Under the pieces are notes generated by a model that saw nothing but the letters and a program-made list of their open reading frames with translations, was not told the DNA's origin and did not search any database. Positions 12,861-27,588 of a stretch of 64,000 nucleotides of DNA are shown here, one piece after another. The stretch is taken from NCBI GenBank assembly GCA_964633865.1, contig CAZWIJ010000002.1:628-64627 (forward strand), written 5' to 3'. Within the stretch, counting starts at the first letter, position 1; every line of letters starts with the position of its first letter. The DNA is from an uncultured Candidatus Saccharibacteria bacterium. Its GTDB lineage: Bacteria > Patescibacteriota > Minisyncoccia > SW-4-49-11. The position numbers and the translations under genes were made by a program.

Positions 12861-14651
12861 TTATAAAGTTAACTCAAACTCTTTTATACCCTCCAAATCT
12901 TGTAGCAACTTTTCTTCATTGAGTTTATCCATATAATCTACTTGCAGATTTTTACTTTGGAGTACTGTTAGATGATATTTTATCTGATTATTATCTATAG
13001 TAATTTCTAAACTCAAACCTTGCTGGGTATCTGAAGAAAAAGTCTGATCAAAAATAAAATTACCTAAAGAATAAAAAATAGCTTTTCCATTGTAAATTTC
13101 AATTGGCTGTATCACATGAGGATGATGTCCAATCACAATATCAGCTCCTGCATCTATAAATTGATGAGCTTTTGATTGTTGAGAATTTGAGAAAACTTTT
13201 TTATATTCTATTCCCCAATGTGGATTTACAATAATAAGGTCTGTTTTGTCTGACAAATTCTTTATCTCTGCCAAAATTGGTGCCAAATCTGGATTACTAA
13301 ATTCATGATATCCCACAAAACCTATCTTATAACCTTTAATTTCTTTTATTAAACTTAAATCTTGATTCAAAGGATCTCCAAAATATTCTATTTGATTTTG
13401 GCTTAAATATTCTCTAGATTGAGCTAAGCCTTCTTTCCCAAAATTGAGTGAATGGTTATTAGCAAGTCCAAACAATCCAAAGTTTAATTCCTTTAGAGTT
13501 GGGACAATTTTAGGATCAAAAGTAAAAGACATATTATTTGGAGCAAGAGCTTTGGGTTTATAATCAGTAAAAGATCCTTCCAAATTAGCAATAACCAGAT
13601 CTTTTTCCAACAATTTTTCTTTTAGATTCACAAAAGAATATTCTACTCCTTTTTGATTAATAATTTGCCTAACATATCTATCCAACATCATATCTCCAAA
13701 AAACCATAAGTTGACTTTGTCTCGACTTTGTTTTGTTGGCTCACCTTTACTAAAATAACCTACAAGATAGCTGACAACTTCTTCTAAATCTGGATTGTTT
13801 AGTATTTTGGTAGAATTTGTATTTTTCAGTAATTCAAACTTTTTATATCCAACTTTTTCCAATATTTCCATATTAATTTTCAATGTTTTTGGAGAATCCA
13901 CATCCACTTCGGAGAAATTAGCATAGTCAAATTTTTGGATAATATTTAGACTTTTCTCGTCATTTCGATCACATAAATCACTGTCTGTATTGTGACAAAA
14001 ATCTAGCGAAGCCACAAAAAGATATTTTTCTGGTAAATTATCTGATAAAGTCTCAATAAAATTTTGTAAATCTGATTCTCTTGTTATGTCTTTGGTGATA
14101 ATGGGTAGAATCTTAGCATTAGGTAGATTTCGCTTGATAAATGGAACAATTCCAGAAATTCCATGCTCATTCAAAAAAGGCTTCTCGTCTATATTAATTA
14201 CTTGATCTCTTTTTAATAAATTAATCATATCCAAATCTGGTTCCAAAGTTCCATAGGGAGTTTTCCAACTATATTCAGAAGTTATCAAGCCCCCACTACC
14301 AGCTCCAAAATGATTTGGACTCATCAAAAACACTGTTAGCTCTTCATTAGTTTTCACTTGATTAAAATTTTCTGCTATAAGGTTTTTAGCAATCAAATGA
14401 TGAGGAACGATAATGGCTTTAATATCTTTTTTCTCTGTTGGCACTGATAAATTTTGGAAAGCTTCTTCAAAAAAATTTTTATCTTTAAGATAAGAATAAT
14501 GAATATTTGGATTTTCTGTACTTATAACAGACCCTAGTTGAACTAAATTATCTTTGTTATTTATTGTTTGATTTTTATTCCAAAGGTACACAACACTGAA
14601 ACTTAGAGCAGATATTAGTAGCAATATTATATATTTTAATTTTGTTTGCAT
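12861..14651 (-). CDS. Signal-anchored fusion: Memo1/AmmeMemoRadiSam-B-like domain + CapA/PGA_cap metallophosphatase-like domain
   Basis: N-terminal TM. AIIVPHHLIAKNL...LMSPNHFG...WKTPYGTL (Memo-like). C-terminal LWFFGDMMLDRYV...NPHWGIEYK...IGHHPHVIQP...YSLGNFIFDQ (CapA-type). Confidence 0.5.
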   Translation of the reverse strand: MQTKLKYIILLLISALSFSVVYLWNKNQTINNKDNLVQLGSVISTENPNIHYSYLKDKNFFEEAFQNLSVPTEKKDIKAIIVPHHLIAKNLIAENFNQVKTNEELTVFLMSPNHFGAGSGGLITSEYSWKTPYGTLEPDLDMINLLKRDQVINIDEKPFLNEHGISGIVPFIKRNLPNAKILPIITKDITRESDLQNFIETLSDNLPEKYLFVASLDFCHNTDSDLCDRNDEKSLNIIQKFDYANFSEVDVDSPKTLKINMEILEKVGYKKFELLKNTNSTKILNNPDLEEVVSYLVGYFSKGEPTKQSRDKVNLWFFGDMMLDRYVRQIINQKGVEYSFVNLKEKLLEKDLVIANLEGSFTDYKPKALAPNNMSFTFDPKIVPTLKELNFGLFGLANNHSLNFGKEGLAQSREYLSQNQIEYFGDPLNQDLSLIKEIKGYKIGFVGYHEFSNPDLAPILAEIKNLSDKTDLIIVNPHWGIEYKKVFSNSQQSKAHQFIDAGADIVIGHHPHVIQPIEIYNGKAIFYSLGNFIFDQTFSSDTQQGLSLEITIDNNQIKYHLTVLQSKNLQVDYMDKLNEEKLLQDLEGIKEFELTL

Positions 14652-14687: not shown

Positions 14688-17600
14688 TCAACCTAAAATT
14701 TTTCCACCTAATACTCTTTCTACTTCTTTTATATCAGTAATTCCTTTTAAAACAGCCATTATTCCAGCCATTTCTAAAGTTATCATACCTTCTTTAATTG
14801 CAATATCTTTTAATTCCTGAACATTTGTCATCTTTGGGATTAGTTTTTTTATTTCATCAGATATCACAAATATTTCGTAGATAGCTTGGATTCCCGAATA
14901 TCCGCTTTGATTTTTAAGAGATGGTGATGATTCATAGATAAAATCTTTCATATGATGACTATATTTTATACCTAATTTTTGTTTCAAAATTTCTTTTTCA
15001 CTATCTGTTAGCATTCTTTTTTGTTTGGTTTGTTCATCTAATTTTCTAATAATTCTTTGGGCTACACTAACATTTACAAAAGTTGCTATTTCTGTGAGCC
15101 CAATACCTAAATCGACTAATCTAAGTATTGCCGATGCTGCATCATTGGTGTGAAGTGTAGATAAAAGCAAATGACCTGTGGCTGCTGCTTGAATTGAAGT
15201 CTCAGCTGTCTCTTTATCTCTAATCTCTCCTATCAAAACAACATTTGGATTTTGTCTCAAAAGAGCACGAAGAGCATTAGAAAAAGTATAACCTGATTCA
15301 TTATTTACTGAAGTTTGAAGTATACCTGACATTTTATACTCAATTGGATCTTCAATGGTAATAATTTTTACACCTGGTTGATTGATTGTGTTTAGAGCTG
15401 CATATAATGTTGTAGATTTACCTGCTCCTGTTGGACCTGTGACTAAGATTAATCCTGTTGTTTTCTTTACTTCTTTTTCTAAAATAGCAAGATTATACTC
15501 ATCCATACCAAGTTCTGTCAAAGTTACTCCTTCAATATCTGATCTTAAGATTCTAAGTACTATAGTCTGTCCATATCCACCAGGAACAATTGAGACCCTA
15601 ACATCAAAATTTTCTTCTCCAAAAATTGTAAATCTTCCCTCTTGAATTTCATTAGCTATATCCAATCTCATTCCTGACATTATTTTTACTTGTCCTAGAA
15701 TCTGAGGATAAACTGATTTGGATAATCTAACAGCTTCCATCAAAACTCCATCTACTCTAAATCTGATTATAAGGTTAGCATTGTCTGGTTCTATATGAAT
15801 ATCTGTAGCTTTAGATTGAACTCCTGTTGCCATTATGATTTGTAATTGTTCGTCAATACTCATATCTTCCTTAATTTGATTAATTGTATCTAAAGTTACA
15901 TTTGTCTCTTTGTATTTCTTTAATCTCACTCCTCGGGATAGAGATGATGTCAAACTAGCTTCATAAAGATCATCTATATAATTTGTATTACCAGCAACTG
16001 ACTCAACTTCTACAAGTGAAGTTTCACCATCTAATGCATGCAAAACTCCATCTTGATAAAGTGTGATCATACCATTTTCGATGGATTTTCTAAAAATTTT
16101 AAATTCTGATTCATTCTTTAAGATTAAATCTGCAATATTCTCTTTCATCTCAAAAAGTTCATAAATTGCAAATCTACCTTTATATCCAATCCCTAAACAT
16201 TCTGGACATCCAACTGGTTTATATAAAGTATCCAAATCTCTTGGAATTGTAAGCCCTGATTTAGGAGAAATAACAGCCAAAGCTTTATTGATTTTTTCTT
16301 TTTCTATTTCATCTGGATGATATTCTTCCTTACAATGAGGACATAATCTTCTTAATAATCTCTGTGCCACAAAAAGATTCATAGCAGACACAACAACATT
16401 CGTATCCACATTAAATTCCTTCAATCTGGTCACAATTCCAATAGAATCATTTGTATGAATAGTAGAAAAAACTAAATGACCTGTAATCGCAGCATTGACA
16501 GCTATATTAGCTGTCTCCTTATCTCTAATCTCACCTACCATAACGACATCTGGATCTTGTCTCATAATAGCACGAAGTCCACTAGCAAAAGTATATCCTC
16601 TTTTTACATCTATTTGAGTTTGATTTACACTTTTAAGCCTATATTCAATTGGATCTTCAATTGTAATTATATTCACATCCGAGTGATTGATATAATTAAG
16701 AAAAGCATAAAGGCTCGTTGTTTTACCTGAACCTGTTGGACCTGAAAGCATTACTAAACCTTGTGGTTTATCTAAATTTCTAATAATTTTATCCAAAAAA
16801 ACATCTCTTATCCCAAAAGTATGCACATCTAATTTTTGCATATCTGGATTTAATAATCTCATAACAATCACCTCTCCATTTTTACCTGGAAGAATAGATA
16901 CCCTAACATCAATTGTTTTTAGTTTTACTCCATCCTCATCAGTAAGTACAATTGAAAATCTACCATCTTGAGAAGAAGTGGTAATATTAAGCATTAAAGA
17001 GGCTAAATTTTTTATTCTAGCCACAATAGATTTATAAAAAGTTTTATCAAAATTAATTATATCTTGTAAAACTCCGTCCACTCTATATCTCACCAGTGTA
17101 GAGGTTTCTTTTGGCTCTAAGTGAATATCACTTGTACCAGTAGCTAATGCTCCAGCACAAAAAGTTTGCATAAATTCTGAAATATCAGCTCCTTTTAATT
17201 TACTTGCCAAATATCCTAGACTCTCTATATTTTCTTCAAAAGTTGTCACTAACTTTTCTGGAACCAATAAAGTTTCTTTTAGGACTGGGGTTTTATCTTG
17301 AATAAATTTATATGCATCTAAACCTTTTTTTAAGCTCCTAGATGATATTAAATAGATATCCAAATTATATCCTTCTTGATAAAAGTATTGTAATAAATTT
17401 TTAGTTGTAGGATTATTTACATCCAAGAGGGCTATTTTTAGATTCATACCACCTCTTTGGAAAATAAGCATATTTGTAGCTTTAGCTTGCTCAATTGTAA
17501 TCAATTTTAAAGCTTCAGGATTGATTGGAATAAATTTAAGATTCAGATAAGGTATCCCTATTTCTTCTGCTCTTTTTTCTACAGCTAATTCTTCTGCTCT

Positions 17601-17693
17601 TACTTTCATATCAGAAAGAGTGTTAGTAAGATCTTTATCTTGCCTTAATCTTTGATGAAAACTTTTCCTTTCCCTTTCTTTTAGATATGCCAT
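14688..17693 (-). CDS. Tandem-duplicated (fused) GspE/PilB-type secretion/pilus ATPase, 1001 aa
   Basis: Two complete ATPase cores, each with Walker A (LSGPTGSGKTT; VTGPTGAGKSTT), IEDPIEY, a GEIRDKETA Asp box and an STIHTND/STLHTND His box. The first core carries the CPHC...CPEC tetracysteine; the second lacks it. A GspE_N-like N-terminal domain is present. Confidence 0.8.
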   Translation of the reverse strand: MAYLKERERKSFHQRLRQDKDLTNTLSDMKVRAEELAVEKRAEEIGIPYLNLKFIPINPEALKLITIEQAKATNMLIFQRGGMNLKIALLDVNNPTTKNLLQYFYQEGYNLDIYLISSRSLKKGLDAYKFIQDKTPVLKETLLVPEKLVTTFEENIESLGYLASKLKGADISEFMQTFCAGALATGTSDIHLEPKETSTLVRYRVDGVLQDIINFDKTFYKSIVARIKNLASLMLNITTSSQDGRFSIVLTDEDGVKLKTIDVRVSILPGKNGEVIVMRLLNPDMQKLDVHTFGIRDVFLDKIIRNLDKPQGLVMLSGPTGSGKTTSLYAFLNYINHSDVNIITIEDPIEYRLKSVNQTQIDVKRGYTFASGLRAIMRQDPDVVMVGEIRDKETANIAVNAAITGHLVFSTIHTNDSIGIVTRLKEFNVDTNVVVSAMNLFVAQRLLRRLCPHCKEEYHPDEIEKEKINKALAVISPKSGLTIPRDLDTLYKPVGCPECLGIGYKGRFAIYELFEMKENIADLILKNESEFKIFRKSIENGMITLYQDGVLHALDGETSLVEVESVAGNTNYIDDLYEASLTSSLSRGVRLKKYKETNVTLDTINQIKEDMSIDEQLQIIMATGVQSKATDIHIEPDNANLIIRFRVDGVLMEAVRLSKSVYPQILGQVKIMSGMRLDIANEIQEGRFTIFGEENFDVRVSIVPGGYGQTIVLRILRSDIEGVTLTELGMDEYNLAILEKEVKKTTGLILVTGPTGAGKSTTLYAALNTINQPGVKIITIEDPIEYKMSGILQTSVNNESGYTFSNALRALLRQNPNVVLIGEIRDKETAETSIQAAATGHLLLSTLHTNDAASAILRLVDLGIGLTEIATFVNVSVAQRIIRKLDEQTKQKRMLTDSEKEILKQKLGIKYSHHMKDFIYESSPSLKNQSGYSGIQAIYEIFVISDEIKKLIPKMTNVQELKDIAIKEGMITLEMAGIMAVLKGITDIKEVERVLGGKILG

Positions 17694-17694
17694 A

Positions 17695-18444
17695 TTATTG
17701 ATTCTTTTTCTTAATTCTGAAGTAAATAAATACTCCTAAACCAATTACTAATAATACTATTCCTAAAATTAATGGCCAAATTGGTGTTTTTGTCTCTTCT
17801 GATTCTTCTACTGAATTTTGATTATTTTGTGTTGAATTTGAATCTTGAAATCTTAGTAAAGTTGTTCCCTCTTGATCTCTTATTATTCCATTATTTGCTT
17901 GTAGTGTTTGTTCTGTTTTGGTGGAGTAGACAATGGGTTTATTTATATTTTCATCATAATAACAATCCATTATACAGCTAAGTTCTGTTTCTCCTTGCTC
18001 ATATTCACAAACATTGTTTTGGTTACAAGTAGCATATGTAGTCAAATCTATGTTCAGTTTTGCTCCTGTAGGGCTAATTATATTCAACTGTTTTGCATGA
18101 GGATAATAAGGTAACTGAATTGTATTTACTCCATTTCTTAAATTTTCTTTTACATAAATTGTCCATTTATAATCTGGTGAAAAACCTTCAAAATTAAGTT
18201 CTAAGTAATTATTGTTATTTCTAAAATTTGGATCATCTTTAAAATAGAATTCATATTCTGACTTTATATTAATTTCAGATACTTTTATATTGTTAATATT
18301 TTTATCCAAAAATAGATTATTATTTTCACTATATATATTAATATGATAATATTGCATAGAACTAGTATCTGCCCTAGATATCCTAAGACCCAATATTAAT
18401 ACTAGAATAAATATTAATTTCAGTAAGTTTTTCATATATTTCAT
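17695..18444 (-). CDS. Secreted Cys-rich protein with C-terminal TM anchor plus basic tail (paralog of 19590-20345)
   Basis: N-terminal signal peptide. CNQNNVCEYEQGETELSCIMDC. C-terminus PIWPLILGIVLLVIGLGVFIYFRIKKKNQ. Confidence 0.5.
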   Translation of the reverse strand: MKYMKNLLKLIFILVLILGLRISRADTSSMQYYHINIYSENNNLFLDKNINNIKVSEINIKSEYEFYFKDDPNFRNNNNYLELNFEGFSPDYKWTIYVKENLRNGVNTIQLPYYPHAKQLNIISPTGAKLNIDLTTYATCNQNNVCEYEQGETELSCIMDCYYDENINKPIVYSTKTEQTLQANNGIIRDQEGTTLLRFQDSNSTQNNQNSVEESEETKTPIWPLILGIVLLVIGLGVFIYFRIKKKNQ

Positions 18445-19586
18445 TTACATTTACCACTAACTTCGTCTTCCATCATTTTTTTACAAATAGTATTTGCATC
18501 TGTAGTATTTGTTTTATTATTAGGCTGACTACAACCTTTTATACTAGCCCATTGACAAAGCTTTTCATTTATTTTATTAGCAGGATTATTAAATGCTTCA
18601 CAATCAGTTAATCCTTTAGAATTTAAAAATTTAGCTACTGCCAAGTCTTGATTAGCTGGAGACATATCATAATCCATAGTACCAACTCCCCAGCCACTTC
18701 CTCTTCCTACTGTTGTTCTAGGAACATTTTTTGGAATACCAGCCGCCGCGGCCCATCCTGTCCATGTTGTATCTATCATTTGATATCTACCATAAGCTGT
18801 ACTATTACTTGCTGTTATTTTTCTAGGATGAAAATTTGGTGTATTTTTTATTGTTGAACCACCTACTGCAATATAATACGAATCCGCACTAACATTAGTA
18901 TGCTCATAAAAGTTTATCGTTCTCATAACTGCTTTTACTCCATCTGAAGCTGTTGAATCACTTAACTCTAGACAAGCTACATTTTCAGCTCCTACAGTAC
19001 TACTATTTCCTGTACCTGTTGCACCAGTATTACTTCCACTTACAGCTCCTCCCAAATTAACTTCTCTTGCCAAAAAATATGATGTACTATCACATTTCAC
19101 TCTAAATAAGCTAAAATCTTCTCCTTCTTGCTCAAATTGTAATGCATCAGATTCCGTTCCTCCTCCTCCAAATCCTATATTACTTACTTGAAATCCTAAC
19201 CCTACTAATATAAAATTAAACATTATGAATGCGGATAATGTTAATACTATTCCTAGTATTGCATTCTTAATTATGTCTACTCCTTGCTTATATTTACCTT
19301 GATCTCCTGAGGAGATTACCATATAAAATCCTCCTATTACTATACTTATTACTGCCATTACTCCTAATAATTGAAATAAAAAATTCATTATATCTCTTAC
19401 TAATATAAACATATCACATACTGTACAATCTCTTCCTACTCCACATTGTACCAATCCTCCTTCCGCTCCATACATTATATTGGGGAGCCAAATTAAACTT
19501 AGTATTACTTTTTGTATTATTTTTCTCATATAATATTTATAACTTATATTCAATTTAATTATATCATAGATTTCCTTCATCTTCAT
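18441..19586 (-). CDS. Fusion: signal peptide + VirB2/TrbC-like two-TM hairpin + Gly-rich linker + Rpf-like (transglycosylase-like/lysozyme-fold) domain
   Basis: TM hairpin IMNFLFQLLGVMAVISIVIGGFYMVISSGDQGKYKQGVDIIKNAILGIVLTLSAFIMF. C-terminal AYGRYQMIDTTWTGWAAAAG resembles the Rpf motif YYGGLQF..STW..YGG. Confidence 0.5.
   Translation of the reverse strand: MKMKEIYDIIKLNISYKYYMRKIIQKVILSLIWLPNIMYGAEGGLVQCGVGRDCTVCDMFILVRDIMNFLFQLLGVMAVISIVIGGFYMVISSGDQGKYKQGVDIIKNAILGIVLTLSAFIMFNFILVGLGFQVSNIGFGGGGTESDALQFEQEGEDFSLFRVKCDSTSYFLAREVNLGGAVSGSNTGATGTGNSSTVGAENVACLELSDSTASDGVKAVMRTINFYEHTNVSADSYYIAVGGSTIKNTPNFHPRKITASNSTAYGRYQMIDTTWTGWAAAAGIPKNVPRTTVGRGSGWGVGTMDYDMSPANQDLAVAKFLNSKGLTDCEAFNNPANKINEKLCQWASIKGCSQPNNKTNTTDANTICKKMMEDEVSGKCK
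19062..19500. repeat. ~440-bp near-identical direct repeat, copy 1 (copy 2 at ~20748-21190)
   Basis: Nucleotide sequence is almost identical across the 5' thirds of genes 18441-19586 and 20352-21221, with only a handful of substitutions visible. Confidence 0.8.
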
Positions 19587-19589
19587 TAT

Positions 19590-20345
19590 TTATTTTATTT
19601 TTTTCTTGATTCTAAAATAAATAAATACTCCCAAACCAATTATTAATAATACTATTCCTAAAATTAAAGGCCAGATAGGAGGATTTTTCTGATTTGTTTC
19701 AATTGAGTCATTATCTTGACTATTATCAGAACCAGAAATTCTAGTCAATGTAACTATTCCTTGATCATCTTTAATAAATCCATTTCCCTGATTTAACTTT
19801 TCTTGAGTTTGATCAGAATACACAATTGGCTCACCTGTATAATTAATACAATCTGGATTACACATAGAATCTTCATTTAGCTCGAATTCACAAATTAGAT
19901 TCTGATTGCAAGTAGAAAAATCTCCTACATCCAATGATAGAATATTTGTTTGAGTTTCTACTGACTTTATAGATAATTCCTGAACCCAATTAAGATAAGG
20001 GATTATAATTTCAAAAGATCCAACTTTTGGGTTAAACCCAAAATTATGTTTGTAAGTACCATCATTACCAATAAAATCTATATAAAACTTATATTTACTT
20101 GATTCATTTTCCCAATCCTTGTCACCTTCTACTCCTCTTGAAATCATACCTTGATAAGTATCTTCATCACTAATTTTAGAATTAAAAACTATATTAGGAT
20201 TAATACTTTTATCCAAACTTAGAATATTATTTGGCTCATCATAATATAAATATATTTTATAACCTTCAGCCCTAACAAAACTTGGAATCAAAAAACATAA
20301 TATTATAATGAAATTTAATAGATATTTTTTTAAAAAAGTATGCAT
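19590..20345 (-). CDS. Secreted Cys-rich protein with conserved C-terminal TM anchor (paralog of 17695-18444)
   Basis: CNQNLICEFELNEDSMCNPDC. C-terminus PIWPLILGIVLLIIGLGVFIYFRIKKKIK. Confidence 0.5.
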   Translation of the reverse strand: MHTFLKKYLLNFIIILCFLIPSFVRAEGYKIYLYYDEPNNILSLDKSINPNIVFNSKISDEDTYQGMISRGVEGDKDWENESSKYKFYIDFIGNDGTYKHNFGFNPKVGSFEIIIPYLNWVQELSIKSVETQTNILSLDVGDFSTCNQNLICEFELNEDSMCNPDCINYTGEPIVYSDQTQEKLNQGNGFIKDDQGIVTLTRISGSDNSQDNDSIETNQKNPPIWPLILGIVLLIIGLGVFIYFRIKKKIK

Positions 20346-20351
20346 AATTTT

Positions 20352-21221
20352 TTACTTTAAAATTTCCAATTTGACTTCTCCTGTACCATCAGCTTTCATA
20401 CCAATAGATTCTGCTGAACCTTGCGATAAATCTATAATTCTAGCATAATTACCAGCACCATCTTTAGTAAATGGACCTCTATCATTAATTCTAACTTCTA
20501 CAGATTTTCCAGTTTTTATATAAGTAACTTTTATTTTAGTTCCAAAAGGTAAACTTCTATGAGCTGCTGTCATTGCATTCTGATCAAAAGTCTCGCCATT
20601 AGCAGTTTTCCTCCCATGAAATCCTGGACCATAATAAGATGCTACTCCTTTTATTGTAGAAACCACTTCTCCGGAATCTGCCGTACTACTTCCTGTTCTT
20701 GCTGTAACACTTTCGCCCACTACACTTGTACCACCACCAACTAAATTCACCTCTCTTTCTAAGAAATATGAAGTACTATCACATTTCACTCTAAACAAGC
20801 TAAAATCTTCTCCTTTTTGCTCAAATTGTAATGCATCAGATTCTTCCCCACCTCCTCCAAATCCTATATTACTTACCTGAAATCCTAACCCTACTAATAT
20901 AAAATTAAACATTATGAATGCGGATAATGTTAATACTATTCCTAGTATTGCATTCTTAATTATGTCTACTCCTTGCTTATATTTACCTTGATCTCCTGAG
21001 GAGATTACCATATAAAATCCTCCTATTACTATACTTATTACTGCCATTACTCCTAATAATTGAAATAAAAAATTCATTATATCTCTTACTAATATAAACA
21101 TATCACATACTGTACAATCTCTTCCTACCCCACATTTTACCAATCCTCCTTCTGCTCCATACATTATATTGGGGAGCCAAATTAAACTTATTCCTATTAT
21201 TTTTTGTAAATACTTTTTCAT
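20352..21221 (-). CDS. Fusion: signal peptide + VirB2/TrbC-like two-TM hairpin + RlpA-type double-psi beta-barrel (DPBB) domain
   Basis: N-terminal ~150 aa nearly identical to 18441-19586. C-terminal ASYYGPGFHGRKTANGETFD...MTAAHRSLPFGTKIKVT...VEVRINDRGPF matches RlpA/DPBB_1. Confidence 0.6.
   Translation of the reverse strand: MKKYLQKIIGISLIWLPNIMYGAEGGLVKCGVGRDCTVCDMFILVRDIMNFLFQLLGVMAVISIVIGGFYMVISSGDQGKYKQGVDIIKNAILGIVLTLSAFIMFNFILVGLGFQVSNIGFGGGGEESDALQFEQKGEDFSLFRVKCDSTSYFLEREVNLVGGGTSVVGESVTARTGSSTADSGEVVSTIKGVASYYGPGFHGRKTANGETFDQNAMTAAHRSLPFGTKIKVTYIKTGKSVEVRINDRGPFTKDGAGNYARIIDLSQGSAESIGMKADGTGEVKLEILK
20748..21190. repeat. ~440-bp near-identical direct repeat, copy 2
   Basis: See copy 1. 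Confidence 0.8.
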
Positions 21222-24156: not shown

Positions 24157-24326
24157 GTAGAATTTTAATTTAAAGTATTATTAATTTGATTTTTGGGGTT
24201 GTATTATTTGAAATTTTACCAATCTTATTTTTGGGATTTTATATTATGGCGACAGGGTGTCGCCTTTTCTTCTTTGACCAAATCCGACTTTTTAAGTATA
24301 ATATACACAAGATTAATTTATTTCTT

Positions 24327-24728
24327 ATGCAAAACTTTATTAAAAATTTCCAAGATTGGTTTTCTTTGAAACCTAAATTAGATAATAACAATCATAAACC
24401 ACCTTTTGTGTCAGAAAGAGATCTCTGGTGGTGCCATCTTGGGGAAAATATTGGAACTGAAATTAGTGGTAAATCTAATAGATACACAAGACCTGTTATT
24501 ATTTTTAAGAAACTTTCTAATTATACTTATTTAGTTATACCTACTTCTACAAAAATCAAATCTGGTTCTTGGTTTATAAATTTTGTCTATAAAAATACAA
24601 ATATGATAGCTTGTCTCAACCAAATAAGAGTTATTGACTATCGTAGAATACAAAATCAAATTGGAAAATTAGATATAAATGATTTTAAATCTATTAAAAC
24701 TGGATTTAAAAAATTATACAATTTGTAA
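24327..24728 (+). CDS. MazF/PemK-family toxin-like protein
   Basis: RPVIIFKKLSNYTYLVIPTSTK...ACLNQIRVIDYRRI matches PemK/MazF core motifs (RP.vv......vv.PlTs......dQir.vD..Rl). Start placed at the internal ATG at 24327, because a hairpin plus T-run (ggcgacagggtgtcgcc ttttcttcttt at 24249-24276) lies inside the longer called ORF. Confidence 0.6.
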   Translation: MQNFIKNFQDWFSLKPKLDNNNHKPPFVSERDLWWCHLGENIGTEISGKSNRYTRPVIIFKKLSNYTYLVIPTSTKIKSGSWFINFVYKNTNMIACLNQIRVIDYRRIQNQIGKLDINDFKSIKTGFKKLYNL

Positions 24729-25056: not shown

Positions 25057-25668
25057 TTATTGGAATGATCCAGTTTGAACTCCTCCAAATACGAATGTTA
25101 AGATTGTATTGGAAGCTGTGAATGCAAAGAATAAGATAACCATACCGATAACTGCATTGGTCATTCTCTTCTGAGCTGTTTCTGTCTTTCCTGCATCTCC
25201 TCCTGCTGTTGCATATTCGAATCCAGCGATCAAGAAGATACCGAATACGATAATTCCCACAAATCCTAAGAACCAGTTAATTACTGTTGATATAGTTCCT
25301 ATCAAATCTTGTGATTGATTAAGCTCTGTGCTTACTAATACTCCAACTTGTCTTGTATTATCTCCTGTTAGATTTACACCTGTACTTCCTGAAGCACCAC
25401 CTACACATCTATTAGCAGTACATATATCAGATGCACACTCCCCATTAGTTGAACAATTCTGATTAGCTGCATATCTACATTTTCCAGCTACACCTGCTGT
25501 TGCATTCTTACATGCAGTTCCTGCTGTACACGTATTACCAGTAGGGCCTCCACAGTCTGCCCCATAATCAACAACTGCAGCATAACCATAGTTAGGAGCT
25601 ACTAATACTAGAGCGAATAGGAACATTGAAGCTATTCCTAAGCTTTTTAATAAATTAAGTTTTTTCAT
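25057..25668 (-). CDS. Secreted Cys-rich protein ending in a VirB2/TrbC-like two-TM hairpin (pilin-like family)
   Basis: Sec signal peptide. Cys-rich insert CGGPTGNTCTAGTACKNA...CSTNGECASDIC. C-terminal INWFLGFVGIIVFGIFLIAGFEYATAGGDAGKTETAQKRMTNAVIGMVILFFAF. Confidence 0.55.
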   Translation of the reverse strand: MKKLNLLKSLGIASMFLFALVLVAPNYGYAAVVDYGADCGGPTGNTCTAGTACKNATAGVAGKCRYAANQNCSTNGECASDICTANRCVGGASGSTGVNLTGDNTRQVGVLVSTELNQSQDLIGTISTVINWFLGFVGIIVFGIFLIAGFEYATAGGDAGKTETAQKRMTNAVIGMVILFFAFTASNTILTFVFGGVQTGSFQ

Positions 25669-25867: not shown

Positions 25868-26290
25868 TTATTGGAATGATCCTGTCTCAACTCCTCCAAA
25901 TACGAATGATAATATTGTATTAGAAGCTGTGAATGCAAAGAATAAGATAATCATACCTATTACAGCATTTATCATTCTCTTTTGAGCTGTTTCTGTCTTT
26001 CCTGCATCCCCTCCTGCTGTTGCATATTCAAATCCAGCAAGTAAGAAAATTAAGAATACGATAATTCCCACAAATCCTAAGAACCAATTAATTACAATCG
26101 AAATTGTTCCTATCAAATCTTGAGATTGATAAAGTTCTGTACTGACAAGTACTCCAACTTGTCTTGTATTGTCTGGCTGTAAATTTACACCTGATCCATC
26201 AGCATATCCATAACTAGGAGCTCCTAATAATATAGGAAATAGGAACATTATAGTTATTCCTAAATTTTTCAATAAATTAAATTTTTTCAT
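25868..26290 (-). CDS. Pilin-like two-TM hairpin protein (short paralog lacking Cys-rich insert)
   Basis: Signal peptide and C-terminal 100 aa ~90% identical to 25057-25668. The Cys-rich segment is replaced by DGSGVNLQPD. Confidence 0.55.
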   Translation of the reverse strand: MKKFNLLKNLGITIMFLFPILLGAPSYGYADGSGVNLQPDNTRQVGVLVSTELYQSQDLIGTISIVINWFLGFVGIIVFLIFLLAGFEYATAGGDAGKTETAQKRMINAVIGMIILFFAFTASNTILSFVFGGVETGSFQ

Positions 26291-26771: not shown

Positions 26772-27104
26772 CTAAACTTGGAAAACAAACCCTATAATTG
26801 CATTTGTGAGAACAAAGGCAAAGAATAAAATTAAGGCTCCTATCACTGTATTTGTCAATATCTTTACTGAAGACTCTGCTTGTCCTTGATTTCCTCCTGC
26901 TGTTAGATACATGAATCCTGCATAAATTATTAAAATAAATACTATTATTCCTATAAAACCTAGAGTCCAATTAATAGTATTCTGAATATAATCTAAAAGA
27001 GTGCCTTGTGCTACTCCGGTAACACCTGGGTCAGGAATTGCTCCTACTGGAGGAAGTGACTCTTGACCTACAGTTGATGCTAATAATTTTATTGTATTTT
27101 CCAT
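26772..27104 (-). CDS. Pilin-like two-TM hairpin protein (110 aa)
   Basis: IQNTINWTLGFIGIIVFILIIYAGFMYLTAGGNQGQAESSVKILTNTVIGALILFFAF, the same module as the neighbours. Confidence 0.5.
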   Translation of the reverse strand: MENTIKLLASTVGQESLPPVGAIPDPGVTGVAQGTLLDYIQNTINWTLGFIGIIVFILIIYAGFMYLTAGGNQGQAESSVKILTNTVIGALILFFAFVLTNAIIGFVFQV

Positions 27105-27108
27105 ATTA

Positions 27109-27588
27109 TTATACTGCTAATACAGCACTTATTACATAATTTGTTATTAAAAAAGCTCCTATCATCAAAACTAGACCTATTGTAGCATTACTTATACTAG
27201 ATAGAGATTGTTTTGCTTTATTACTATCATCACCTGCTGTCATATAATTAAATCCACTCATCAATACTAAACCAAAAAACACAGTACCCACAAGTCCTAA
27301 TGCCCATCTTATAATTTGAGCTATATAACCTATCAGAGTACCTTCTGTTCTGATACCTGGATTAACTCCTAAAAATTCTCCAAGACCATCTTGTACTGGA
27401 GTTTCTGAGTTAGAATTTCCACCACCATCTTCTGAGGTAGTATCAACACATGTAGAAGTATCTTCGTCACAAACTTTTGGGTCAACACATGAGGGATTAC
27501 AAACAGCATAAACAGAGTTTATATTTATTCCTAAACTACATATTGATAATAAAGTCAGAGTAAAAAATATTTTTTTAGATAAGTTCAT
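27109..27588 (-). CDS. Secreted Cys-rich protein ending in pilin-like two-TM hairpin (159 aa)
   Basis: Signal peptide. CNPSCVDPKVCDEDTSTCVD. IAQIIRWALGLVGTVFFGLVLMSGFNYMTAGDDSNKAKQSLSSISNATIGLVLMIGAF. Confidence 0.5.
   Translation of the reverse strand: MNLSKKIFFTLTLLSICSLGININSVYAVCNPSCVDPKVCDEDTSTCVDTTSEDGGGNSNSETPVQDGLGEFLGVNPGIRTEGTLIGYIAQIIRWALGLVGTVFFGLVLMSGFNYMTAGDDSNKAKQSLSSISNATIGLVLMIGAFLITNYVISAVLAV

Follow-up and report, generated by a model that had tools for sequence, protein, structure and literature searches.

The motor ATPases PilB, GspE and PilT have been studied as homohexamers. Rings of PilB and PilT are built from six rigid packing units, each pairing the N2 domain of one subunit with the C-terminal domain (CTD) of the next, N2D(n)+CTD(n+1), with flexible linkers between the units, and the firing order of the six sites, with two-fold or three-fold symmetry, is still debated for PilB, GspE and PilT motors (PMC6858323). 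Here we examine a member of this group with two motor cores in one chain. It is encoded by an uninterrupted open reading frame (ORF) of 1001 amino acids at positions 14688-17693 (minus strand, stop codon included) of a 64,000-nucleotide stretch of contig CAZWIJ010000002.1 (assembly GCA_964633865.1, positions 628 to 64,627 of the forward strand) from an uncultured Candidatus Saccharibacteria bacterium. We refer to this whole stretch as the window and to its protein as the query.

Among the known systems nearest to the query is PilB (TIGR02538; M. xanthus 3JC8, Geobacter 5TSG, 5TSH and 5ZFR). It shares with the query the order N1 (T2SSE_N/MshEN-like), N2, CTD, as well as Walker A, the Asp box, an atypical Walker B (GE), the His box and a tetracysteine subdomain, and it is among the best fold matches. 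Unlike PilB, the query adds a second complete N2-CTD core, and its gene does not lie beside pilC, pilM or pilT. GspE/EpsE (TIGR02533; Vibrio 1P9R, 4KSR and 4PHT) has the same fold and motifs and is the best family match of the second core (390 bits), but the query core is in tandem, type II secretion genes are not nearby, and the single-core score stays below the TIGR02533 cut-off. Thermus thermophilus PilF (6F8L, 913 amino acids) is likewise a long PilB-type ATPase lengthened by internal domain repetition. PilF repeats its N-terminal GSPII/N1-like domains and has one motor core, whereas the query has a single N1 and a repeated motor core and matches the PilF chain in one stretch only. KaiC and the type II AAA+ proteins (p97, NSF, ClpB) also carry two ATPase modules per chain from internal duplication, and they form two stacked rings of six chains. 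Linked dimers of Msp1, which are laboratory AAA+ constructs, are covalent ring-ATPase dimers that assemble as a trimer-of-dimers pseudo-hexamer (PMC12793716). We propose the same assembly for the query, but its gene occurs in nature, is conserved and belongs to the PilT/VirB11-like (RecA-fold) family.

Type IV pilus genes are reported to be widespread in genomes of the candidate phyla radiation (CPR), pili are thought to be central to host attachment and DNA uptake in these bacteria, and CPR bacteria are reported to be without the PilQ outer-membrane secretin (PMC6744442). The searchable literature, whose coverage omits most subscription journals, gave us no account of a PilB or GspE with tandem cores, and databases label the tandem protein 'GspE/PulE family protein' with its second core unmentioned. 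Our reading, to which we give a probability of roughly 0.6, is that the gene encodes a duplicated-motor PilB, three chains of which would form a six-core ring, (A-B)3, acting as a pilin-polymerising motor. It is an undescribed variant of a well-known motor, not a new system, and its biochemistry is expected to be PilB-like.

Results

The chain runs from an N-terminal helix and N1 domain through an N2-CTD core (core A) and a 47-residue linker to a second N2-CTD core (core B). Pfam T2SSE (PF00437) matched it in two stretches at 695.7 bits (cut-off 24.9; E = 1.4e-209), which places it in the PilT/VirB11-like superfamily, and NCBIfam GspE/PilB models matched as well. The motif set of the superfamily (Walker A, Asp box, atypical Walker B ending in GE, His box) occurs twice: GPTGSGKT at residue 318 and GPTGAGKS at 753, IEDPIE at 345 and 780, GEIRD at the end of Walker B at 387 and 822, and T(I/L)HTN at 411 and 846. 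The N2 domains carry corresponding strings, SDIHLEP...RYRVDGVL (188-209) in core A and TDIHIEP...RFRVDGVL (630-651) in core B, and an alignment of the two halves spans 400 residues with 38% identity (E = 8e-92). To judge from these matches, the motif pattern together with two T2SSE stretches is far beyond chance. An earlier note on this DNA had described a single 1001-residue polypeptide with two complete GspE/PilB cores, each with its own N2 and with Walker A, IEDPIEY, Asp-box and His-box motifs occurring twice. The ORF, the motifs, the Pfam matches and the self-alignment bear this out, and every one of these motifs was found in both cores.

We then considered whether the gene is real. Twelve contigs, up to 129 kb long and deposited at NCBI, JGI/IMG and ENA, carry the identical 1001-residue protein. 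A large protein database contained at least 120 clusters (90% identity) of collinear homologues of 978-1024 residues, covering 95-100% of the query at 40-97% identity, and with this the fused ATPases that the earlier note had proposed to look for in other CPR genomes were found as homologues of about 1000 residues. They come from Minisyncoccia, Moranbacteria, Parcubacteria and Patescibacteria under the record name 'GspE/PulE family protein'. More divergent tandem clusters are named Parcubacteria-group or Paceibacterota, for example KKU82539.1, 'General secretory pathway protein E'. The nearest named relatives are about 60% identical to the query, and the guanine-cytosine (GC) content of the window is about 29%. 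The window is accordingly assigned to a CPR/Patescibacteria genome of the Parcubacteria/Minisyncoccia type. At the junction between the cores (window 15849-15989, residues 569-615) one frame is open and the other two are full of stops, and a scan of the gene and the junction for frameshifts and homopolymers found none, with no long homopolymer runs.

An artefact, be it the frameshift between neighbouring genes that the earlier note had named against itself or a collapsed repeat between single-core genes, has nothing in its favour and can practically be set aside because of the 12 contigs from three repositories, the at least 120 collinear clusters and the in-frame junction. The conserved linker of 119 collinear homologues argues against it too, as does the DNA of the two cores, which is only about 73% identical, over short stretches. 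The note had also put the junction at about 16200-16300; that interval is the tetracysteine region of core A. The tandem-core gene is real and conserved in CPR/Patescibacteria, and is not an assembly artefact.

Parts of the gene, all on the minus strand, were delimited by alignment, motif positions and an AlphaFold2 (AF2) model. Residues 1-130 (17304-17693) comprise the N-terminal helix (12-45) and the N1 domain (46-127), which is present once per chain, ahead of core A only. The MshEN match over residues 46-127 scored 22.0 bits, marginally under the cut-off of 23.1; relatives such as P0127 (38.5 bits) pass it, and AF2 predicts a confident alpha/beta domain here. An N1 domain ahead of N2-CTD, as expected of a PilB, was found with this marginal MshEN score. 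It is followed by the N1-N2 linker of core A (residues 131-170; 17184-17303), delimited by AF2 secondary structure, with a low predicted local distance difference test (pLDDT) score at 132-138. The N2 domain of core A (residues 171-295; 16809-17183) has invariant R202, R204, D206, G207, R264 and R279 and matches the PilB/PilF/GspE N2-CTD fold. The CTD of core A (residues 296-568; 15990-16808) contains Walker A (318-326), the Asp box (345-351), RQDPD-Walker B (378-391), the His box (405-415) and the tetracysteine C451/C454/C496/C499, the last within a zinc-binding subdomain, CPHC...CPEC (residues 451-499; 16197-16343). The true junction is the inter-core linker at residues 569-615, recognised by its length, its conserved residues and the single open frame. 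It has a conserved helix and measures 43-52 amino acids in 119 of 119 tandem proteins, with Y577 kept in 117, E578 in 108, L585 in 117 and R587 in 99 of them. Beyond it, the N2 domain of core B (residues 616-722; 15528-15848; invariant R644, R646, R687, R699 and R714) aligns to that of core A, and the CTD of core B (residues 723-1001; 14691-15527) holds Walker A (753-761), the Asp box (780-786), RQNPN-Walker B (813-826) and the His box (840-850). Residues 886-928 (14910-15038) are the cysteine-less counterpart of the zinc-binding subdomain, in which D886, T889, S925 and N928 replace the four cysteines.

Conservation was counted in an alignment (A1) of the 119 tandem proteins. The Walker A lysine (K324 in core A, K759 in core B), the Asp-box glutamates (E346 and E350; E781, present in 118 of 119, and E785), the Walker B Gly-Glu pair (387-388 and 822-823, with E388 and E823), the His-box histidines (H406 and H413; H841 and H848), the RQxP arginine and the N2 arginines (202, 204, 264 and 279; 644, 646, 687, 699 and 714) are invariant or nearly so in both cores. 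Thus the catalytic Glu, Walker B and arginines, by which the earlier note had hoped to tell the halves apart, are kept in each. Every checked residue needed for ATP binding and hydrolysis is retained in both cores, and both are apparently active.

Comparison of the two cores with each other revealed few fixed differences. At least 90% conservation with the same residue in A and B was found in 72 columns, and in just two, I376/L811 and D380/N815, each core conserves a residue of its own. The latter is the sole strongly conserved polar difference between A and B: every A core and 94% of single-core PilBs have Asp at this position, and B cores without exception have Asn (N815 in 119 of 119; residue 815 lies at window ~15249-15251). 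The motif ahead of Walker B is accordingly RQDPD throughout the A cores and in 94% of single-core PilBs, and RQNP(D/N) throughout the B cores, and in the query clade the next Asp is also Asn (N817). Strongly conserved columns number 113 in core B versus 128 in core A, and the distance between clades is 0.98 for B versus 0.78 for A. By these measures core B is somewhat more divergent and less constrained than core A. The lower column count, the larger distance and the D-to-N change that is fixed in B cores at 815, close ahead of Walker B and joined by N817 in the query, could be taken as signs that core B is a degenerate, non-catalytic pseudo-ATPase, serving as a scaffold or an allosteric partner for core A. 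We consider this improbable, as the Walker A lysine, the Asp-box and Walker B glutamates, the His-box histidines and five N2 arginines of core B have stayed invariant or nearly so.

The cysteines behave differently in the two cores. All four of core A, C451, C454, C496 and C499, are invariant (119/119), so that core A has the tetracysteine zinc-binding subdomain by which PilB is recognised. In core B the same columns hold four cysteines in 85 of 119 proteins, two in 4 and none in 30, the last group consisting of the query and relatives 58-97% identical to it. In the query itself CxxC occurs at 451 and 496 only and the C-terminal half is cysteine-free, and AF2 keeps a strand-helix-strand fold at the cysteine-less subdomain. 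Cysteine loss from core B is, on this alignment, clade-specific. The earlier statement that the second core has lost its tetracysteine is right for the query subclade and does not extend to the family.

Next, we asked to which class each core belongs. Curated cut-offs were 675.65 bits for PilB (TIGR02538), 630.25 for GspE (TIGR02533), 319.1 for PilT (TIGR01420), 250 for VirB11 (TIGR02788) and 305 for TrbB (TIGR02782). The N-terminal half scored 444 bits with PilB, 439 with GspE and 168 with PilT; the C-terminal half scored 390 with GspE, 368 with PilB and 179 with PilT. VirB11 and TrbB models gave 46-57 bits per half, below their cut-offs. The full-length protein reached 799.7 bits with PilB, a value above 675.65 only since the scores of two cores add up. 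The comparison of the halves with PilB, PilT and VirB11 profiles that the earlier note had suggested thus puts both in the PilB/GspE class. In a sequence search of solved structures, the closest were M. xanthus and Geobacter PilB, Vibrio GspE and Thermus PilF, with PilB best at 326 bits and PilT far weaker, and no solved chain matched at both cores. The AF2 model, made from a 119-sequence alignment, was confident per domain (mean pLDDT 84.8). Foldseek matched it to PilB, PilF and GspE N2-CTD structures with template modelling (TM) scores, normalised to the target, of up to 0.92 and a root-mean-square deviation of ~3 Å; no solved chain covered more than about one third of the model, and the query-normalised TM score was at most 0.36.

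These results bear on the division of labour that the earlier note had suggested, a PilB-like core plus a PilT-like or regulatory one. On that reading an extension motor would be fused to a retraction or regulatory motor, and one chain would both extend and retract the pilus. Core B does resemble PilT/PilU (TIGR01420) in being without N1 and, in the query clade, without zinc cysteines, and a neighbour-joining tree put query-clade B cores beside PilT. We judged this grouping, in a tree of 329 cores, to be long-branch attraction, as distances and cross-scores of hidden Markov models (HMMs) disagree with it: query-clade B cores lie at a mean distance of 0.98 from Moran-type B cores, 1.09-1.23 from A cores and 1.46 from PilT, and in 28 of 35 their best HMM other than their own is that of Moran-type B cores. 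A profile built from PilT-type ORFs in the fetched loci gave 137 bits to query-clade B cores, versus 412 for the profile of Moran-type B cores. Core B, for its part, scores 390 bits with GspE versus 179 with PilT (cut-off 319). It retains a C-terminal subdomain that matches the zinc-binding region of core A in the self-alignment and in AF2, is of PilB/GspE type and is absent from PilT. The AIRNLIRE-like C-terminal PilT motif was looked for in core B and not found, four cysteines are kept in core B of 85 of 119 relatives, and the catalytic residues are kept. Core B is, on these comparisons, of the PilB/GspE class and not PilT-like, and the fusion of an extension with a retraction motor appears to be largely refuted by sequence already; we hold it to be very improbable.

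We also looked into how the tandem arrangement arose. Moran-type B cores score best to the A-core HMM in 82 of 84 cases. In locus L091 (NCBI GCA_041643235.1, 1400-3097) a 565-residue single-core A-type PilB, P0134, occupies a slot between DHH and RuvB genes that is the same as that of Moran-type tandem genes in L003 and L086, and no B-core remnant was found downstream of it. These scores and the single-core orthologue in the shared slot fit a tandem duplication of N2-CTD inside an isolated pilB better than they fit a fusion of two genes. The L091 gene would represent either the state before duplication or a later loss of core B. Protein identity between the cores of one chain is 75% in P0130, 56% in P0129, about 50% on average in Moran-type proteins and 38% in the query clade. 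The cores of P0130 (L092, 3226-6213, adjoining TsaE) are 76% identical in DNA over 1133 nt. Such similarity in P0130 and P0129 would imply that the module was duplicated anew not long ago or that gene conversion has acted on its two copies.

Duplication of the motor appears to recur. P0030 (L003, 10001-14383, on a 77-kb contig of JGI 3300022698), for which one record was found, is a protein of 1460 amino acids with three complete T2SSE cores and Walker A motifs at 314, 761 and 1211; core 1 is A-type, core 3 B-type and core 2 intermediate. It is not an assembly repeat, because DNA identity between its cores is just 67-69%. Outside the CPR, P0135 (1047 amino acids; L089, 8001-11144, and L090, 3275-6418) was found in the NCBI metagenome-assembled genome (MAG) GCA_964384625.1 and in Logan SRR7048224. 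Like the query it has two PilB/GspE-class cores per chain, but where the query has N1 it carries an N-terminal GspF/PilC-type T2SSF domain (PF00482, 78.5 bits), and its gene directly follows an ECF sigma factor and an anti-sigma gene. P0135 probably represents a separate, non-CPR tandem origin, since both its cores are closest to non-CPR single-core proteins. P0188 (390 amino acids) and P0136 (540 amino acids) were tried as free-standing B cores and rejected as truncated fragments, their genes starting 60 nt or less from a contig end.

To place these proteins among their relatives, the family profile was searched against 1.84 billion representatives of clusters at 50% identity. It returned 23,992 T2SSE proteins at E <= 1e-30, among which only 14 full-length tandem representatives preceded the point where the ranking turns to single-core PilBs of ~550 amino acids; this ranking covers PilB/GspE-class cores, tandems of the PilT, VirB11 or FlaI class scoring too low to appear in it. 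Among the matches listed from GTDB species genomes, which served as an outgroup set and not as a census, the tandem ORF was found only in L004, a Moraniibacteriota MAG, and the 91 other ORFs, from many phyla, were single-core.

Around the tandem gene, TsaE (five loci), DHH phosphoesterase, RuvA/RuvB/RuvC and PGK recur as neighbours (L001, L003, L086, L002, L085, L092), housekeeping genes as opposed to pilus genes; the Moran-type loci contain an LTD-domain protein besides the DHH and ruv genes. The ruv linkage may point to a part in DNA uptake or may simply be synteny that was inherited. In the window the ATPase gene begins 1 nt after the end of a same-strand cassette whose genes include two T4SS_pilin (PF18895)-hydrolase fusions. 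Four further T4SS_pilin ORFs lie within 10 kb, and in L091 a T4SS_pilin gene lies ~1.5 kb from the single-core orthologue. Such proximity could mean that the protein is a VirB11-like traffic ATPase serving the neighbouring T4SS_pilin proteins and not a type IV pilus. The VirB11 and TrbB scores of 46-57 bits per half, however, compare with ~370-444 for PilB/GspE, the T4SS_pilin neighbourhood is not conserved in L001, L002, L003, L085, L086 or L092, and no VirB4, VirD4 or VirB6 was seen among the window ORFs scanned. We therefore regard a VirB11-like role as quite unlikely.

The cassette itself is a tandem duplication of two genes at 17695-21221 (minus strand), one copy made up of 20352-21221 and 19590-20345 and the other of 18441-19586 and 17695-18444. 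Each copy encodes a T4SS_pilin-hydrolase fusion and a protein of ~250 amino acids with a signal peptide and a C-terminal membrane anchor; the copies are nearly identical in the N-terminal ~150 amino acids of the pilin fusions and in the C-terminal anchors of the smaller proteins. The product of 20352-21221 has an additional C-terminal DPBB_1 lytic-transglycosylase domain. In all, six T4SS_pilin ORFs occur in 9 kb of the minus strand (18441-19586, 20352-21221, 25057-25668, 25868-26290, 26772-27104 and 27109-27588). A PemK/MazF-type toxin ORF (24186-24728, plus strand) stands between this T4SS_pilin cluster and an ORF that, by eye only, is serine-tRNA-ligase-like. Directly downstream of the ATPase gene, 12861-14651 (minus strand) encodes a 596-residue fusion of Memo-like (PF01875) and PGA_cap (PF09587) capsule-synthesis domains. 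Nearly all ORFs between 12000 and 60300 are on the minus strand, with a persistently negative plus-strand GC skew; this region includes a ribosomal protein operon, EF-Tu, RecA, sigma-70 and DnaG.

Discussion

We propose that the N2-CTD module was duplicated in tandem within an ancestral isolated pilB to give the order N1, (N2-CTD)A, a linker of 43-52 amino acids, (N2-CTD)B. The covalent A-B pair would occupy two adjacent ring positions, and three chains would close a six-core pseudo-hexamer in which A and B alternate. In such a ring, half of the six N2D(n):CTD(n+1) packing units would form within a chain, and N1 domains would number three versus six in a homohexamer. Hydrolysing ATP at both kinds of site, the ring would, like single-core PilB, drive the polymerisation of pilins through a PilC-type platform. 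A three-chain pseudo-hexamer is plausible and consistent with known ring architecture. The core numbers seen per chain are two and, in P0030, three, and both versions fit a six-core ring because 2 and 3 both divide six. The recurrence of the duplication and the constancy of the linker, in length and in its helix, are compatible with such a ring as well.

Several results weigh against this picture. Taken singly, each core stays under the PilB (444 and 368 bits) and GspE (439 and 390 bits) equivalog cut-offs. The 64-kb window yielded no ORF for pilC, pilM, pilT, a prepilin peptidase or a prepilin-like protein, and no pilus genes were found within 10 kb of tandem orthologues in L001, L002, L003, L004, L084, L085, L086 and L092. 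The association with pilC, pilM, pilT or pilin genes that characterises PilB was thus not seen in the window or in these eight loci. The tandem ATPase gene is a stand-alone locus, and the assignment to a pilus is made by homology, since no pilus genes lie near the gene in the nine loci. The tree expected from a single origin is not clean either, since neighbour-joining draws query-clade B cores to PilT. The remaining two points concern the ring: the AF2 monomer model has a predicted TM score (pTM) of 0.50, so that the relative placement of its domains is not confident, and natural tandem ring ATPases such as KaiC and p97 stack their rings.

Both of these points favour the main rival, in which six chains would form two stacked hexameric rings, an A ring with N1 next to the membrane platform and, under that, a B ring. 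Side-by-side packing of the cores is not predicted with confidence by AF2, stacking is usual among natural tandem ring ATPases (NSF and ClpB as well as KaiC and p97), and a linker of 43-52 amino acids is long enough for it. By contrast, N2D(n):CTD(n+1) packing units hold the ring together, so an in-plane covalent dimer fits naturally (PMC6858323). The three-core P0030 would require three stacked rings, and it is hard to see what a B ring would do that lacks N1 and lies far from the PilC platform, yet its motor residues are all kept. Stacking strikes us as unlikely, while deserving more weight than any other alternative.

A stricter form of the (A-B)3 proposal is an obligate pseudo-hexamer whose A and B cores are no longer equivalent. 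Signs of it would be that N815 is invariant, that B diverges faster, that B has lost zinc in the query clade and that a ring has three N1 domains. We regard this form as doubtful. If the cores are non-equivalent, the ring would have a built-in three-fold alternation, versus the two-fold (CCOCCO) pattern described for homohexameric PilB. If true, this would be a natural experiment on how many and which sites a pilus motor needs. One possibility is that a single motor serves both extension and retraction in lineages without PilT.

A duplicated-motor PilB would be of use in several ways. A natural covalent dimer of cores fixes which two sites are neighbours and leaves each ring with half as many N1 adaptor domains, and one class of site could be mutated apart from the other, which otherwise needs engineered linked constructs. 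The motor module also tolerates repeated duplication, as the two-core and three-core chains and at least one apparently independent case from outside the CPR show, and this bears on how the ring is assembled. The arrangement would somewhat surprise specialists in pilus motors, to whom it offers a natural handle on the coordination of sites. For the biology of the CPR, the tandem protein would be a lineage-specific form of a key pilus motor.

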